The notes below the pieces were generated by a model. It was not told where the DNA came from. It saw only the letters and a program-made list of their open reading frames with translations, and searched no databases. A DNA stretch of 6,221 bases. Source: a virus (taxonomy: Duplodnaviria; Heunggongvirae; Uroviricota; Caudoviricetes). The stretch is from IMG/VR virus record IMGVR_UViG_2585427792_000015. One strand, 5' to 3'. This document shows, in pieces, positions 1 to 6,221 of this stretch. The position numbers were made by a program, and so were the translations under genes. Position 1 is the stretch's first letter. Every line of letters begins with the position of its first letter.

Positions 1-140
1 GTTGATGTATCAACACGATTCAACAATACCCGATATTTATTCCATGCCTCCAGCAACGATCTTTCTTCCGCCGTTGCGATTTCCAGATCTACAGCATCCT
101 GCAGTGGCGCAATATACTCACTGAATTCCTGGATGTAGAA
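1..140. repeat. Direct repeat copy A (tfa 3'-end homology)
   Basis: Positions 1-122 align base-for-base with 1050-1171 at roughly 85% identity (hand alignment, not computed); weaker codon-level similarity continues to about 140 / 1189. Confidence 0.7.
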
Positions 141-227
141 CTGTGTGGTGACGGTCTTCCAGCCATTCGGCTCTTGCTGTATCGAAGCATACCAGGCTAT
201 TTCAATATCGCTATGCTGCGGCAGCAT
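1..227 (-). CDS. Tfa-like small protein, partial (3' end runs off the window start); homologous to the C-terminal domain of tail fibre assembly protein
   Basis: Minus-strand ATG at 227-225 with an in-frame TAA immediately upstream (230-228) and an AAGGGG Shine-Dalgarno (complement of 232-237) 4 nt before the ATG. My translation: [75 protein letters not shown]... The last 40 or so residues align with the C-terminus of the full Tfa at 1007-1591 ([41 protein letters not shown]). Not in the supplied ORF track because it is edge-truncated. Confidence 0.6.
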
Positions 228-254
228 TTAACCCCTTGTAATTCATCGCCATAA

Positions 255-283
255 TTGATTTAATTCACAAATAAAACTATAAC
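255..283 (+). promoter_or_regulatory. Candidate sigma70-like promoter for the methyltransferase gene
   Basis: TTGATT at 255-260, a 17-nt spacer, then TATAAC at 278-283, in an A+T-rich 56-bp gap between divergent genes. Pattern match by eye only. Confidence 0.2.
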
Positions 284-952
284 ATGGTGAAATCAATGAA
301 AAAAAACACAGATGATGGGGCTAAAATTTACACACCACTTACCCTAAAGCTTTATGACTGGTGGGTTTTGGGAGTATCAAATCGGCTTGCATGGGGATGT
401 CCTACAAAGGAACACCTTCTTCCACACTTTCTGGAACATGTAGGTAACAACCATCTGGATATTGGTGTTGGAACTGGGTTTTACCTTACTCACGTACCTG
501 AGAGTAGTCTGATATCTTTAATGGATTTGAACGAAGCTAGCCTGAACGCGGCATCTACAAGGGCTGGGGAATCAAAAATTAAACATAAAATTAGCCATGA
601 TGTTTTTGAACCTTATCCCGCGGCGTTACATGGTCAATTTGATTCCATTTCCATGTTTTACCTTCTTCACTGCCTGCCTGGAAATATATCTACAAAAAGC
701 TGTGTAATACGCAATGCGGCGCAGGCCTTAACTGACGATGGAACTCTATACGGAGCCACAATTCTTGGCGATGGAGTTGTGCACAATAGCTTCGGTCAAA
801 AACTGATGCGCATTTACAATCAGAAAGGCATCTTTTCAAACACAAAAGATTCCGAAGAAGGCTTAACACATATACTCTCAGAGCATTTCGAGAATGTTAA
901 AACCAAGGTTCAAGGTACTGTAGTAATGTTTTCCGCTTCAGGGAAAAAATAG
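284..952 (+). CDS. Class I (Rossmann-fold) SAM-dependent methyltransferase, UbiE/COQ5-like; substrate unknown
   Basis: 222-aa ORF ending in TAG at 950-952. Contains the SAM-binding motif I HLDIGVGTGFY, an acidic post-I residue (LMDLNEAS), a motif II-like FDSISMFYLLHC and a motif III-like LTDDGTLYG. The N-terminal LYDWWVLGVSNRLAW resembles the YD...HRLW element of UbiE-type methyltransferases (recalled, not searched). Composition is clearly more A+T-rich than the flanking tail genes. Start is ambiguous: ATG 284 has no obvious SD, while ATG 296 follows GGTGA (286-290) at 5-nt spacing. Confidence 0.8.
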   Translation: MVKSMKKNTDDGAKIYTPLTLKLYDWWVLGVSNRLAWGCPTKEHLLPHFLEHVGNNHLDIGVGTGFYLTHVPESSLISLMDLNEASLNAASTRAGESKIKHKISHDVFEPYPAALHGQFDSISMFYLLHCLPGNISTKSCVIRNAAQALTDDGTLYGATILGDGVVHNSFGQKLMRIYNQKGIFSNTKDSEEGLTHILSEHFENVKTKVQGTVVMFSASGKK

Positions 953-959
953 CATCCAA

Positions 960-992
960 CCGCAGCACGTTCTTGCTTAAGACGTGCTGCGG
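960..992. terminator. Perfect 11-bp inverted repeat hairpin between convergent genes; possible bidirectional terminator
   Basis: CCGCAGCACGT (960-970), 11-nt loop, ACGTGCTGCGG (982-992). Sits between the methyltransferase stop (952) and the tfa stop (1007). On the minus strand a T-run (complement of 944-949) lies about 10 nt past the stem; there is no U-tract on the plus strand. Confidence 0.35.
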
Positions 993-1006
993 CATAATCC
1001 CAATGA

Positions 1007-1591
1007 TTACTCCCTGACAGGGTTCGTAGGCCACTCAATATCAGGTGCAGTTGATGTATCAACACGGTTCAGCAACACCCGATACTTCTTCCAGGCTTCC
1101 AGCAATGAGGTTTCTTCCTCCGTTGCAATTTCCAGATCTGCAGCATCCTGAAGCGGCGCAATATGCTCACTGGCTACCTGCATCAGGTTGTTTTTTGTTT
1201 CTTCCGCCTCCCGGATCCGGAACAGTTTTTCTGCTTCCGTATCCTTCACCCAGGCTGTGCCGTTCCACTTCTGAAACTCCCCTTCCGGCGATAACCAGGT
1301 AACATTTTCCGGTAACGGACCGAGTTCAGAAATAAATAACGCGTCGCCGGAAGCCACGTCATAAACCGTTTTACCCCGATGATCTTCAACGAGATGCCAC
1401 GATGACTCATCACTGTTGAAAACAGCCACGAAGCCAGCCGGAATATCTGGCGGTGCAATATCGGTACTGTTTGCTGGCAGACCTGTATGAGGCGGAATAT
1501 ATGCATCACCTTCACCAATAAATTCATTAGTTCCGGACAACAGATTATAAATTTTTATGGTCCGTGGTTGTTCACTCATTCTGAATGCCAT
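1007..1591 (-). CDS. tfa: Tail fibre assembly protein (chaperone)
   Basis: 194 aa, [18 protein letters not shown]..., which matches lambda Tfa as I remember it in length and N-terminus. Its ATG overlaps the stf stop in TAATG (1589-1593), the usual stf-tfa coupling. Confidence 0.93.
1050..1189. repeat. Direct repeat copy B (3' end of the intact tfa)
   Basis: Same orientation as copy A; both start GTTGATGTATCAACACG. The two copies bracket the methyltransferase gene. Confidence 0.7.
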
Positions 1592-4500
1592 TATGCAAGC
1601 CTCACAATATAGTTAAATGCGATGTTTTTGACGGTGTTTTCCGCGTTACCAGCAGCGTTAACGGTGATGGTGTGTCCATGTGAACCAATCGCAACGGAGT
1701 GCGTATGAGCACCAATACCGACAGTATGTGCATGTGCACCAGCATTTGCTGCAGTACCAGACAGCGAGTGGGTATGAGCACCTGCTGACTGTGTCTGAAT
1801 ACGTTGATAATACGATCTACTGGAAGAAGTCTCCGGGCTTACTTGATACTGTGAATCCTTGACATAAGTGAACCCACCGCCATCATAAAATGCTAACGCA
1901 GAACCGCCGCCTCCCGGCCAACGAATACCATTACCATGAGTATGAGCACCGGCAGACCCCGTAGAGCCACTCAGACTGTGCGTATGCGACCCGGTGTTAT
2001 TCGTGGATTTAGTGCCGTAATCAAACGACGATGTGGTTTTCGTCCCCAAATCCGTACTGGATGCGCTGGCGCTGTGGGTGTGCGATTTTATGCCGTCCCG
2101 TTCCTGAGACAATACGGCCCGGCCACTGGCGGGTTTGCCCTTGATTGTCCAGCCGCGCATATCTGGAATAACACCTGAAGGATAGGCAATAGCCAGTTTC
2201 GGATATGCTGCCTTATCAAACGTCTGCCCCTGCATGATTGCATAACCTGCAGGTGGTGTATCTGATGGCCACGGCAGCGGAACACCTGGCGGAAACGCTT
2301 CAATATTTGCCGAGCCGTCAAATTTTACGCCGTTAATTGTCCTTGCAGTTTGCAATTTGGTTGCTGTGCTTGCATTACCCGATAAAGATCCAGTGATACC
2401 ACCACTCGCGTTTAATTTAGTTGCAATTGTAACATTGCCAGTATGGTTACTAATTATAAACGGCCTTAAGCTATTGTGCGTACCAAGACTGTTACCCGAA
2501 TCTGTCAACATAAAATATGTGTTTGATCCATCATTTCGGATAAAGAATCCATAGTTGCCATAGGCAATACGCAGACCATTTGCTGACCTTGAAATAACCT
2601 CACCAGCAGCAGTTAAACCACCTGAAAGAGTCCCTCCAGTTAATGCCAATGCCCCAATATTTGAAGGGGTCAATGTGATATTTGCACTACCATCAAATGA
2701 CACACCGTTAATCGTTCTGGCTGCCTGAAGTTTCGTGGCGGTCGCAGCATTACCTGTAGTGTTTTGATTACCGGTAGCGTTGACTCCAGGCAAGTTGATA
2801 TCTGCCGATCCATCAAATGCCACGCCCCCAATCTTACGTGCTGTCTTGATCTTGGTCGCAGTATCTGCGTTTCCGGTCAAATTACCAGTAACACTACCAC
2901 CAACTTTTAGTCCATTACCGATGGACACCAACCCTGATCTTAAGTTTATAGAGAATGGTCTTAATGAACCGATGTCTCCATTTTCCCCCTCCCCTTCATT
3001 AGTCGGAATAAGATGAAGATAATCTTCGGAACGCCTAAAAATAAGGCCAAAGGCTTGGTTGAATATTCGAAGAGCATTTATCGTGCTGATTTTTAACTGC
3101 CCTCCCATTGTGTCGCCAGTTTTTTGAACTGAACTATCTTTAACAGTTTTAACTGCCTTTGGCGTTGCCGCCAGCTTTTCACTGGTGCTGTTTGTTGCAC
3201 TGCTGAGCTGTACTATCCCCTTTTTCGTCGTGCTCGCATCCTCAAGCCCCACGGCGGATGCAATATCCTCTGCCCGTTTTGCCGCTGTTTCGGCACGCGT
3301 TGCCGCGGATTCAGCAGCAACTTTGCTCTGAGATGCCGCCGTCGCACTGCCTGCCGCCTCTGATGCTTTCGTTGTTGCTGTCGTGGCACTACCTTTCGCT
3401 GCTGACGCTTGTCTGGTCGCCTCATCTTTTGAAGCAGACGCAGATGATGCCGATGACGCCGCTGAACTGGCTGACGATGCGGCTGCCGCCTTAGAGGAAG
3501 CAGCATTGTCTGCTGAAGTCTTTGCATTTGTTTCAGAGGTTTTTGCTGCAGAAGCAGACCTCGCTGCTGCAGTGGCTTGCTCAGTGGCTTTGCCAGCCTT
3601 CGTTGTGGCTGTTGAAGCGGATGATGCGGCGCTTTCTGCCGATTTTCCGGCGGCGGTGGCACTGGCTGAGGCCTGCCCGGCACTTGTTGACGCGGCACTG
3701 GCAGATAATGCAGCCGCTGTTTTTGAACCTGCCGCAGCCGAGGCGCTCTGTCCCGCTGCCGTTTCAGAAGACCTGGCGTTTGTCTCAGACGTCTTTGCCG
3801 CCTTCGCGGAATTGCCTGCCGCCGTTGCCGAGGAAGCGGCACTACTGGCGCTTGATGATGCGTTCGTTTCTGATGATTTCGCTGCCTCTTTTGAGGCCGC
3901 CGCATCCCGGGCTGAGGTGGCTGCTTCTGACGCCTTCGTGGTCGCGGCGGATGCAGAAGTGGCTGCTGATTGTTGTGACGCTTCCGCATTCGTTTCTGAC
4001 GTTTTCGCCGCACCGGCACTGGTAGCTGCCGCGCTTTTTGAGGACTCTGCAGCAGCAGCACTTTTCGATGCTTCACTGGCCTTTGTCGATGCCGTTCCTG
4101 CGCTGGAAGACGCTGACTGAGCCGACGACGCGGCCTGTCCGGCTGACGTGCTGGCGGCACGTGCTGAGGCTGCAGCATCGGTTGCATGAGTTACCGCCTC
4201 GCTGGCTGATGCACTGGCATCGCTGGCTGATTTTTTCGCGGCTGCCGTATTCTGTGCAACCGCGGAGGCGTTACGTGACACCTCTTCCACCATCTGCTCA
4301 AAGCGGCGCAGTGCCTCCGGCCGGACATCATCCTCCGTCATGGCACCGAGAAAATCATTCAGCGTACCTGGTCTGGAACCTTCATAGACGGTAATGGTCC
4401 CGGCATGTGAAGGCGGAAAACCTTCAACCAGCAGGGTGACGCTGTACTGCCCGTACTCAACGTCCATGCTGTAACGCCCGGCTTCATCCGGATTTTCTGA

Positions 4501-4617
4501 GGCCAGCGTGTTCACCACCACCGTGGTGCTGTTACGTTTTGCTTTCAGCTGGATTGTGCAGTTCTGTACCGGTTTTCCTGTGCCGTCTTTCAGTACACCT
4601 GAAATCTTTACTGCCAT
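1591..4617 (-). CDS. stf: Side tail fibre protein
   Basis: Single uninterrupted ORF. The track starts it at a GTG (4623); an ATG at 4617-4615 gives [26 protein letters not shown], the lambda Stf N-terminus as I recall it, with a GGGG-containing SD 5 nt upstream. Has a long Ala/Ser/Thr-rich region with four AAKTSETNA units, three copies of a roughly 23-aa TATKLQ(T/A)ARTINGV.FDGSANI repeat, and a C-terminal His-rich GAHTHS / HxH region ending [15 protein letters not shown]. Confidence 0.93.
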
Positions 4618-4626
4618 ATTCACCCC

Positions 4627-4655
4627 ACAAAAAAGCCCGCCTGAACCGGCGGGCT
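4627..4655 (-). terminator. Rho-independent terminator downstream of lom
   Basis: On the minus strand an 8-bp GC-rich stem (4648-4655 pairing with 4634-4641, loop 4642-4647) is followed directly by a T6 tract (complement of 4629-4634). It lies 27 nt past the lom stop and just upstream of the stf SD and start. Confidence 0.65.
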
Positions 4656-4681
4656 GTCATAACACTGTGTTACCTGGCTAA

Positions 4682-5281
4682 TCAGAATTTATAACCGACA
4701 CCCACGATGAAACCGTCAGTGCGCCAGTCACCACTGCCGGAGCCTTCATAAGCAATATCAATGGCCACGGATTCGGTCGGGTTAAACTGCACGCCAGCCC
4801 CCCACGCCAGAGACGTGTTGCTGTGGCGACCGTCATCACTTCCGGTCAGCACATCGTGCTTTTTCCCCTTGTTGTCAGTTACGCGAAGATAATCCCCGGA
4901 GAAAGTCGACACACGGCTGTAAGCTACACCCGCCATCGCATACGCGCTGAACCATTCATTCACGCGCACAGACGGCCCCGCCATTACGCTGAACCAGCGG
5001 TTACGAACGGAATCTTCATGCCAGCGGGTATCGCTGTAACGGGTCAGCTGGCGATTCTTGTCTCCTGCATAGCTGAATGACGTCACCATCCCCAGTGTGT
5101 CCGTAAACTCATAACGGTATTTCACGTTAATCCCGTTCAGATCATCGCTGCCGGGGACGTTCGTCGAGGCATGAAGATACCCCGCGCTCAGCGTGGACTG
5201 ATGTTCAGACGCCCATGCAGGCGCACCGGATACGGCCAGACAAATGGCTGCGGACAAAATTGCTGCACAAACTTTACGCAT
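4682..5281 (-). CDS. lom: Lom, outer-membrane beta-barrel protein of the Ail/Lom family
   Basis: 199 aa with a Sec-type signal peptide (MRKVCAAILSAAICLAVSGAPAWA) and the C-terminal DIAYEGSGSGDWRTDGFIVGVGYKF with terminal Phe typical of OMP barrels; matches lambda Lom as I recall it. GAGAGG SD upstream of the ATG at 5281-5279. Confidence 0.93.
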   Translation of the reverse strand: MRKVCAAILSAAICLAVSGAPAWASEHQSTLSAGYLHASTNVPGSDDLNGINVKYRYEFTDTLGMVTSFSYAGDKNRQLTRYSDTRWHEDSVRNRWFSVMAGPSVRVNEWFSAYAMAGVAYSRVSTFSGDYLRVTDNKGKKHDVLTGSDDGRHSNTSLAWGAGVQFNPTESVAIDIAYEGSGSGDWRTDGFIVGVGYKF

Positions 5282-5305
5282 AATTACCTCTCGCTTTTCT
5301 GCAAT

Positions 5306-5330
5306 AAAAAAGGCGTCATTCCTGACGCCC
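5306..5330 (-). terminator. Rho-independent terminator between J and lom
   Basis: On the minus strand a 7-bp stem GGCGTCA / TGACGCC (5323-5329 pairing with 5312-5318, loop 5319-5322) is followed by a T6-7 tract (complement of 5305-5311). It lies 22 nt past the J stop. Confidence 0.6.
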
Positions 5331-5351
5331 TTTATTGGGGTTATAAATATT

Positions 5352-6221
5352 TCAACGAATACTGATGCCGGAAGCGGCTTTTTTGGTCACAATCACCGTA
5401 CAGTCGGTGATATTGCCTGCCCCCTGATTGCCTTTCTGGAAAATCTTAAACTCCAGAGTGACGCTTCCCCTGCCACTCGGCATATCAATAACTGCACTGT
5501 AACTACCGGGAATGGCCCCTTTAGTTTCTCTGGATGCGATTAATACGCCGTTTTTGCGAACTTCAAAACCATAACCCGTGTATCGCGTGCCTCCTGGGTT
5601 ATTTCCGCTCCCCGGATCGTCATACGCTATACCGTTAAAAATAATGGGCGGAATAATAATCTGGCGGTCAAAGTTATGATCATCGCTGATGGTGACTGTA
5701 ACCGTACCGTTTGGTGTTTCCGTGTTACCCCACGTACCGACTTTTTTCGGGAAGGCTTTTGATACAGCTTTAACGAAATCTCCTCTGACCTGGGTCGCCT
5801 CCAGCATGCCCTTAATCGTACAGTTCTGGTTAATCGTGACATTGTTGAGCGTTCCTGAGTTCGCATTCACACTGCCACTGATATCCGCATTTTTCGCCGT
5901 CAGTCTCCCGTCTGATGTCAGGGAAAATGCCGGAGGATTACCGCCGCTGGTAATGGTGGGGGCCGTCAGGCGTTTCAGGAACACTTCATTCATGAATATC
6001 TGATCGCCCTGACCAACAAACATCGGCTTTGTGTTGCCATTCGCAGGATTAATCATCGCAATCCTGTCTGCTGCCAGCAGCACCTGACTCTGCATGCCGT
6101 CAGGGGTGTTCTCAATACCGGCACCGATACCCGCAATATAAAGGCGTCCGTCCTGCATCTGCTGCAGCTTCACTGCCCACATGCTGTTCAGGTTATTATT
6201 TGTATCAACCTGAACCTTCTG
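5352..6221 (-). CDS. J: Host specificity / central tail fibre protein J, C-terminal part (5' end off the window)
   Basis: The track ORF 5352-6182 begins at an internal Met; I translated 6183-6221 in the same frame (QKVQVDTNNNLNS) and found no stop, so the gene continues past the window end. Identity is inferred from its position directly upstream of lom and stf in a lambda-type arrangement, not from a remembered sequence. Confidence 0.8.
   Translation of the reverse strand, partial: QKVQVDTNNNLNSMWAVKLQQMQDGRLYIAGIGAGIENTPDGMQSQVLLAADRIAMINPANGNTKPMFVGQGDQIFMNEVFLKRLTAPTITSGGNPPAFSLTSDGRLTAKNADISGSVNANSGTLNNVTINQNCTIKGMLEATQVRGDFVKAVSKAFPKKVGTWGNTETPNGTVTVTISDDHNFDRQIIIPPIIFNGIAYDDPGSGNNPGGTRYTGYGFEVRKNGVLIASRETKGAIPGSYSAVIDMPSGRGSVTLEFKIFQKGNQGAGNITDCTVIVTKKAASGISIR

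Follow-up and report, generated by a model that had tools for sequence, protein, structure and literature searches.

We analyzed a 6,221-nucleotide stretch of DNA from a Caudoviricetes virus (IMG/VR record IMGVR_UViG_2585427792_000015), here called the window, with a focus on a methyltransferase gene of the ybcY type that adjoins the far end of a tail module of the lambda type. An earlier note, made from the letters of the sequence alone, had described the interval 229-1006 as an A+T-rich class I S-adenosylmethionine (SAM)-dependent methyltransferase gene convergent with the late genes, and our analysis confirmed the observation. A single open reading frame (ORF) of 222 amino acids (aa) was called at positions 284-952 on the plus strand, and the interval of the note comprises this ORF together with its promoter region and a downstream hairpin. 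The tail genes J, lom, stf and tfa all lie on the minus strand, as identified from their Pfam domains; thus, the gene is opposite in strand to, and convergent with, the tail operon.

The encoded protein is exactly WP_000240999.1, as present in the Escherichia coli (E. coli) strains Eco889 and S88, and a protein search placed it at 100% identity in a cluster of 6589 sequences named 'class I SAM-dependent methyltransferase'. At the DNA level, the gene is 99.0% identical to ybcY (b0562) in the cryptic prophage DLP12 of E. coli K-12. It matched PHROG 2132 with an E-value of 4e-157 over the full profile (1-218 of 218), with an alignment that starts at residue 5 of the window protein. The homologues in an alignment of 38 sequences also begin at residue 5 of the 222-aa version, and ATG 284 is not conserved, being AAG in Enterobacter. 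The true start is therefore most likely ATG 296, located 12 nucleotides (nt) downstream of the annotated start, which would give a protein of 218 aa. The K-12 ybcY is listed as a pseudogene and has lost 2 nt at gene positions 15-16 (locus L014, 9001-9667), a deletion that destroys the ATG corresponding to window position 296. Since the rest of the K-12 frame is open and differs from the window copy by only three amino-acid changes, the inactivation looks recent and easy to repair.

The gene is thus already catalogued, including its position and annotation, under the names ybcY, phrog_2132 and WP_000240999. No functional name was obtained, as PHROG 2132 has no assigned function and both the large and the representative protein searches returned generic names only. 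Literature searches found nothing on WP_000240999 and nothing relevant on lambdoid moron methyltransferases, on ev243/2G7b or on tfaX/DLP12; publications on ybcY, STM1638 and c0651 mention the gene in passing and give no function.

The base composition of the gene agrees with the description of it as A+T-rich. The GC content is 0.411 overall and 0.359 at third codon positions (GC3), as compared to 0.48-0.55 and 0.44-0.60, respectively, in the tail genes, and positions 284-952 constitute the 669-nt stretch with the lowest GC content in the window, whereas its neighbours have 0.50-0.52. The difference from all tail genes taken together is significant both for bases (Fisher p 3e-7) and for GC3 (p 7e-4). 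The codon-usage distance from the gene to the tail genes is only modestly above the distances among the tail genes themselves. Stretches of similarly low GC content are also present in distal stf.

Promoter and hairpin

The A+T-rich region upstream of the gene contains a putative sigma-70-type promoter, with a -35 hexamer TTGATT at positions 255-260, a 17-nt spacer and a -10 hexamer TATAAC at positions 278-283. A pattern search for this arrangement returned one exact match, as compared to none in 200 shuffles. The same hexamers have been given for K-12 ybcY by Shimada et al. 2014, and the K-12 ybcY spacer bound the RpoD holoenzyme as well as H-NS in genomic SELEX (systematic evolution of ligands by exponential enrichment) (PMC3946193). 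Both hexamers are kept upstream of the chromosomal homologues in Enterobacter hormaechei (E. hormaechei), in Salmonella (STM1638) and in one more enterobacterium, and the nucleotide homology with the E. hormaechei gene starts at window position 234 and includes the promoter. This conservation suggests that the promoter and the ORF have travelled as a unit. Based on the sequence match and the in-vitro binding in K-12, we suggest that the gene has its own promoter of the sigma-70 type. A generic promoter scan proposed another candidate, TTAACC-16-CATAAT (228-255), which was no better than chance.

A strong, terminator-like hairpin starts 8 nt past the stop codon of the methyltransferase gene. 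The folding free energy (dG) is -23.9 kcal/mol on the plus strand (z -5.6) and -28.5 kcal/mol on the minus strand (z -4.3). The homology to lambda spans tfa, continues through the hairpin and ends at window position 958, six bases past the methyltransferase stop codon. The hairpin would thus belong to the ancestral tfa unit and be shared with the methyltransferase gene, and position 958 marks the boundary of the cassette. RefSeq lists a 45-aa 'hypothetical protein' (WP_001309429.1, 897-1034, minus strand) that overlaps the 3' end of the methyltransferase gene, the hairpin and the end of tfa; this call is probably spurious. The coordinates of all features are summarized in Table 1.

Table 1. 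Genes and other features in the 6,221-nt window, with the methyltransferase cassette listed first.
Feature	Position	Strand	Remarks
A+T-rich divergent promoter region	228-295	+	putative sigma-70-type promoter; GGTGA Shine-Dalgarno-like element at 287-291
ybcY-type class I SAM-dependent methyltransferase gene	296-952	+	218 aa; annotated version 222 aa from ATG 284
Strong hairpin, terminator-like	960-993	.	between the convergent stop codons 952 and 1007; 14-bp stem
TfaX-like ORF, tail-fibre assembly remnant	1-227	-	ATG at 227; runs off the window start
tfa, tail-fibre assembly	1007-1591	-	194 aa; Caudo_TAP, E 2e-44; last gene of the late tail operon
stf, side tail fibre	1591-4623	-	1010 aa; Pfam for stf, lom and J together: phage_tail_N, Gp34_trimer, Collar, Ail_Lom, Phage_Tail_Tip, Ig_GpJ_C
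lom	4682-5281	-	Pfam: see stf
J, C-terminal part	5352-6182	-	Pfam: see stf

Protein fold and family

The assignment to the class I SAM-dependent methyltransferases made in the earlier note held up in the profile search, in the structural model and among the structural neighbours. The protein matched Pfam Methyltransf_12 (PF08242) over the full profile (1-98) with 37.5 bits against a gathering cut-off of 30, and further matches were obtained to Methyltransf_23, Methyltransf_25 and Methyltransf_11. An AlphaFold2 model built with the 38 homologues (mean confidence score pLDDT 90.3) displayed a seven-stranded Rossmann-like sheet with flanking helices, preceded by a disordered segment (residues 1-14) and two N-terminal helices. 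The protein also has the class I pattern of a GxGxG motif behind strand 1, an acidic residue closing strand 2 and a second one following strand 3. Motif I reads IGVGTG (residues 60-65), and D59, G61, G63, G65, D81 and D106 are invariant in the 38 homologues. Thus, the protein is a class I enzyme as judged from its profile matches and modelled fold.

The alignment of the 38 sequences, which are 56-90% identical, contains 58 invariant columns. Many of these are specific to the family, namely Y16, Y24-D25-W26-W27, N33, W37, C39, Y126, H129-C130, N168, Y178-N179, K181 and N186, and they include an N-terminal YDWWVL..SN..AW.C element and a C-terminal YN.KGIFSN element. The ratio of nonsynonymous to synonymous substitutions (dN/dS) was approximately 0.12 in the comparison with E. 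hormaechei, where dS is near saturation; dS was saturated for all other pairs, with a dN of about 0.4. The family is under purifying selection.

The closest matches of known structure suggest a small-molecule or lipid substrate. In a sequence search against the PDB, the best match was juvenile-hormone acid methyltransferase (JHAMT; E 7e-6), followed by UbiG (1e-3) and PmtA (8YS9, 0.083). The match to JHAMT, a carboxyl O-methyltransferase, is 21% identical and covers the SAM-binding core only (profile positions 41-149). The top Foldseek match was the bacterial phospholipid N-methyltransferase PmtA (8YS9; E 8e-12, TM score 0.61-0.64), and the structural neighbours were mostly small-molecule or lipid methyltransferases, none of them close, with phosphoethanolamine methyltransferases recurring in the list. 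None of the curated families could be assigned. The NCBIfam matches (CpaM, RquA and PmtA) were all sub-threshold and reached 16-18 bits where the cut-offs lie at 175-390; for the PmtA family itself (NF045882), the score was 15.7 bits against a cut-off of 390. The suggestion in the earlier note that the enzyme is UbiE-like is only loosely right, as Coq5 is among the structural neighbours in a flat list, but no match to Ubie_methyltran (PF01209), and hence no membership in the UbiE/COQ5 family, was obtained even at E<=10. PmtA has an amphipathic N-terminal helix that binds to the membrane. A helix of this type was rejected for YbcY, where the hydrophobic moment in 18-residue windows over residues 15-41 was 0.08-0.21.

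The protein does not resemble Dam- or Dcm-type DNA methyltransferases, in agreement with the earlier note. Regular-expression searches of the protein identified neither a (D/N/S)PP(Y/F/W) motif nor a PC[QK] motif, and a lone ENV at residue 203 sits in the last strands. No match to the Pfam families N6_Mtase, N6_N4_Mtase, MethyltransfD12 or DNA_methylase (PF00145) was found at E<=10.

Homologues of the protein are widespread outside the E. coli prophages. One protein search returned about 2300 matching proteins, and 197 clusters at 50% identity were obtained at E<=1e-30. The sources include Enterobacterales, Aeromonas, Pasteurellaceae, Providencia, Acidobacteria, Nitrospira, Methylococcus, Janthinobacterium, myxobacteria and others. 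The gene contexts of homologues from eleven lineages (covering Salmonella, Yersinia, Enterobacter, Aeromonas, Erwinia, Pasteurellaceae, Janthinobacterium, Methyloligella, Pendulispora and Citrobacter) contained no conserved neighbour or operon. Since the gene is solitary and its neighbours are different each time, the members of the family are likely to act on their own. An alpha/beta hydrolase or esterase gene near the copies in ev243, E. hormaechei and Erwinia was considered as a partner and rejected; the protein of ev243 is not related to that of Erwinia (BLASTP E 0.87), and the hydrolase gene is absent in Eco889, the genome closest to the window. As regards composition, the copies in E. 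coli and E. hormaechei fall 10-13 percentage points short of their surroundings in GC content and that in the host of P0087 falls 4 points short, while the copies in Salmonella, Yersinia and Erwinia are near their surroundings. A fusion to a cytochrome P450 occurs in one bacterial relative and a fusion to RCC1 repeats in one fungal gene model, which may be an artefact; these fusion partners lend weak support to small-molecule chemistry only.

Two further observations were made on the homologue contexts. A small outer-membrane beta-barrel gene is located directly downstream on the same strand in Testudinibacter and Methyloligella (L016, 6957-7589; L020, 5922-6611), and lom and ompT are located near the gene in the E. 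coli phages, a pattern that is too sparse to interpret or use. The Salmonella homologue STM1638 (locus L003, 8001-8663), annotated only as a putative SAM-dependent methyltransferase (PMC11340327), is solitary in the sseJ-cybB interval and lies directly upstream of the small RNA gene rydC. The rydC RNA activates the lipid methyltransferase gene cfa, and its adjacency to STM1638 is probably coincidental.

Distribution and flanking repeats

The gene was identified in 3832 of 5426 complete E. coli genomes (71%), at 4877 places and with up to 4 copies per genome. It was also present in 16 phage records, including the plaque-forming lambdoid phages ev243, 2G7b, Turner and Kati and the PhiR series. 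To place the gene among close relatives, we used the 38 phage records in which 80% or more of the window tfa is present. The gene was found in 9 of these and was absent from about 29, including lambda, HK629 and HK630, although tfa is 95-98% identical in most of the records that lack it. The gene is therefore accessory cargo and not part of the conserved core, in line with the expectation in the earlier note of variable presence among related phages. In phage Ayreon (locus L024, 4001-4036), all that survives of the gene is its last 36 nt, together with the hairpin and some 130 nt of tfa; the same 36-nt remnant beside the hairpin is present in one E. coli genome. The remnant is the scar of a cassette deletion in some lineages.

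The same cassette is found in prophages at several sites, namely potB in Eco889, the ompW/trp locus in S88 and DLP12 in K-12, and the gene adjoins ompT in uropathogenic and enteropathogenic strains (PMC6854850). In the O157:H7 strain E32511 (locus L022, 6670-9500), a block of yciG, yciF, yciE and a Mn-catalase gene is located between the methyltransferase gene and tfa, and the junction of these two genes appears to be a hot spot for the stacking of morons. Phages Kati, Turner and PhiR68_2 carry the same second cargo block, which encodes a general stress protein, two ferritin-like proteins and a manganese catalase. Beyond the tfa remnant of the O157:H7 locus and these phages are ompT and an alpha/beta hydrolase gene.

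A copy of the tfa 3' end lies on either side of the cassette. A direct repeat of 134 nt, 85% identical, connects positions 1-134, within the TfaX-like ORF, to positions 1050-1183, within the 3' coding end of tfa. The TfaX-like ORF is divergent from the methyltransferase gene and has 75 of its about 88 codons in the window; it matched phrog_2341 (E 1e-53) as well as tail-fibre-assembly PHROGs over residues 29-75, and the corresponding gene is called partial tfa by PGAP in Eco889, S88 and O157 and tfaX in K-12. Recombination between the two repeats would remove the cassette, with a hybrid tfa as the product. A comparison with ev243 is consistent with exchange of the cassette, as the block at window positions 3-1127 is 98% identical to this phage but the tail-fibre genes are different. 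Evidently, the cassette and the tfa 3' ends are exchanged together.

On a larger scale, the best complete E. coli genome matched the whole 6.2 kb at about 96% identity over 92-93% of the length. Positions 1-4640 are 98.5% identical to Eco889 and positions 4229-6221 are 97.8% identical to phage ev243. As the whole window has no better counterpart among the complete E. coli genomes, it is a recombinant mosaic of known modules.

The remaining features of the window are those of the tail genes. The tfa gene is 96% identical to lambda orf-194. The Rfam family IS009 (RF02111) matched positions 1050-1248 on the minus strand with 225.5 bits, over the gathering score of 117, and positions 1-204 on the minus strand with 108.5 bits, under the gathering score. 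As both matches are on the coding strand of tfa and tfaX, this 'sRNA family' appears to describe the conserved coding sequence for tail-fibre assembly and not an independent RNA, and the family has previously been treated as lying within genes (PMC5331693). Apart from the IS009 match, which coincides with the coding sequence of tfa, the Rfam search identified no known RNA in the intergenic regions, and no tRNAs were found in the window. The central part of stf (about 3150-4350) consists of repetitive Ala/Ser/Thr-rich coding sequence with a GC content of 0.57-0.62 and a strong AT skew. It contains long ORFs on the opposite strand or in other frames (324, 245 and 167 aa) and weak, sub-threshold Rfam isrG matches, all of which look like by-products of the repeat composition.

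Interpretation and comparison with known systems

We propose that ybcY is an autonomous, horizontally acquired moron, or lysogenic-conversion cassette, that is expressed from its own promoter in the lysogen and encodes a stand-alone methyltransferase for a small-molecule or lipid substrate, and that the cassette is exchanged by way of the tfa repeats. We assign this reading as a whole a probability of roughly 0.7; any particular substrate within it is, taken singly, unlikely. The cassette, placed where a lambda-like tail module ends, would consist of the promoter, the gene for a cytoplasmic 218-aa methyltransferase and the hairpin shared with tfa. Since the gene points against the late operon, late transcription driven from pR' would not make ybcY mRNA and would be antisense to it, as the earlier note had reasoned. 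Instead, host RNA polymerase would transcribe ybcY from its own promoter in the lysogen, and binding of H-NS to the A+T-rich DNA would probably damp the expression. The enzyme, working alone, would transfer a methyl group from SAM to a small and widely available molecule, such as a metabolite, a xenobiotic or a lipid head group, and not to DNA. Any benefit of ybcY to the host is something that we infer. The two copies of the tfa 3' end may provide lambdoid prophages with homology to gain, swap and delete the cassette. As judged from the anatomy of the cassette, such recombination would explain both the patchy presence of the gene next to near-identical tfa genes and its spread to several integration sites.

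Several results weigh against this interpretation. The promoter implies a 5' untranslated region of only about 6-9 nt, which is unusual, and the evidence for it consists of a sequence match and in-vitro SELEX data from K-12, in which the gene is a pseudogene. Binding of H-NS could also mean that the gene is largely silent. The hairpin has no canonical U-tract on the plus strand and was not reported by the terminator scan, so that it is no more than a candidate for termination of the methyltransferase transcript. The difference in base composition is marginal when the gene is compared to tfa or stf alone (Fisher p 0.03-0.045). Finally, a K-12 ybcY mutant was like the wild type in one published assay, in which the allele was already defective.

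Among the other explanations, the one that survives best is that YbcY methylates a macromolecule, either RNA (a nucleoside of tRNA or rRNA, or a carboxyl group in the manner of Trm9 and CmoM) or a protein, and so alters translation or a host protein in the lysogen. We consider this unlikely, because the 218-aa protein has no RNA-binding or extra domain and matched no family of RNA or protein methyltransferases in Pfam or NCBIfam. Most of its structural neighbours and all of its best sequence neighbours are small-molecule enzymes, and the P450 fusion in one bacterial relative points to small-molecule chemistry as well. Furthermore, the family has a patchy distribution and moves horizontally, which is not the pattern of core RNA-modification enzymes.

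Another explanation, which the data allow but do not favour and which we regard as rather improbable, is that YbcY is the founder of a dispersed family of methyltransferases with one ubiquitous substrate and that the prophage copy is a lysogenic-conversion enzyme that alters the host. The substrate could for example be the phosphoethanolamine head group of membrane lipids or another amine associated with the envelope, which would be N-methylated, or a common acid, which would be esterified. The top Foldseek match to a phosphatidylethanolamine N-methyltransferase and the recurrence of phosphoethanolamine methyltransferases among the neighbours speak for this idea, as do the invariant Tyr, Trp and Lys residues that line the family-specific lid regions. 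On the other side, the scores for all curated families fail and the N-terminal helix is not amphipathic. If the idea were true, surface properties, phage adsorption or stress tolerance could change in the lysogen, and the enzyme would have been overlooked because K-12 has a start-less pseudogene, in contrast to the intact copies in about 70% of natural isolates.

Even less probable is that ybcY is a decaying passenger with no current function, which hitch-hikes on recombination in the tail module and owes its prevalence to a near-fixed DLP12 remnant. The lost start codon in K-12, the 36-nt scar in Ayreon, the many related phages without the gene, the binding of H-NS to the spacer and the lack of a reported phenotype are all consistent with decay. 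However, the ORF is intact and near-identical in the inspected copies, with 6589 sequences in one cluster of 100% identity, and functional plaque-forming phages carry the gene. The strong purifying selection and the conservation of the promoter and, across genera, of the catalytic motifs also argue against a passenger. A role as a nucleic-acid methyltransferase in anti-restriction or defence, for example as an orphan DNA methylase or within a modification-based immunity system, is very improbable: prophage cargo sites often hold such genes, but the only PADLOC match, to mad2, was very weak (E 0.009, 12.9 bits) and had no stretch that passed alone, the DNA-methylase motifs (DPPY/NPPY, PCQ) and Pfam families are missing, the top structural neighbours include no DNA methyltransferase, the 218 aa include no target-recognition domain, and no partner gene was found here or beside the homologues, in agreement with the caution of the earlier note about a defence role.

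The interpretation given in the earlier note is supported overall. To it we add the identity of the gene with WP_000240999, ybcY and phrog_2132, the prevalence counts, the start at ATG 296, the gene's own conserved promoter, the shared hairpin and the bracketing by tfaX through a 134-nt flanking repeat. As such, ybcY is ordinary, annotated prophage cargo that leaves the picture of lambdoid phages unchanged and holds no surprise for a phage specialist. It is also a very common accessory gene of E. coli, small, autonomous and under purifying selection, in a methyltransferase family without a characterised member that extends from the enterobacteria to Acidobacteria, Nitrospira and myxobacteria. 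The dead copy in the standard laboratory strain may explain the lack of study. The bracketing by tfa repeats also illustrates neatly how tail modules trade their cargo.

The closest known counterpart is ybcY of DLP12, which has the same gene order (tfaD, a convergent ybcY and a divergent tfaX remnant) and the same promoter hexamers. It differs in that the K-12 copy is a start-less pseudogene in a decayed remnant, whereas in the window an intact copy follows a complete J-lom-stf-tfa module. STM1638 and the other solitary chromosomal homologues are 56-68% identical to YbcY, of the same length and with a conserved promoter architecture, but they are chromosomal and not prophage-borne.

At the level of the enzyme, YbcY resembles the small-molecule and lipid methyltransferases of the Methyltransf_11/12/25 group in the SAM-binding core only, at profile positions of about 41-152. 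JHAMT (7EC0), PmtA (8YS9), phosphoethanolamine methyltransferase, UbiG and Coq5 are only 11-21% identical to YbcY, and the curated-family scores for this group are all far under the cut-offs. The YDWWVL..SN..AW.C and YN.KGIFSN elements set YbcY apart from these enzymes.

In lambda, as the earlier note had pointed out, accessory genes of the b region lie at this place on the opposite strand. These genes (ea47, ea31, ea59) come directly after tfa and its hairpin and run against the late operon, with ea47 convergent at the position of ybcY. Their sequences and functions are unrelated to ybcY, and in Eco889 the entire 'b region' contains only ybcY and the tfa remnant before the host gene potB, unlike lambda. 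Morons, as described by Juhala, Hendrix and colleagues for HK97 and HK022 and for lambda lom and bor, are said to be genes with their own promoter and terminator that have been inserted between genes of the phage. The ybcY cassette resembles them in being a single autonomous gene with a promoter-like element and a composition unlike that of its neighbours, patchy among close relatives, located at a module boundary and oriented for expression from a repressed prophage. It differs from them in that the terminator element is a hairpin common to the tfa unit, with no U-tract on the strand of the gene, and in that the cassette is bracketed by repeats of the 3' end of its neighbour.

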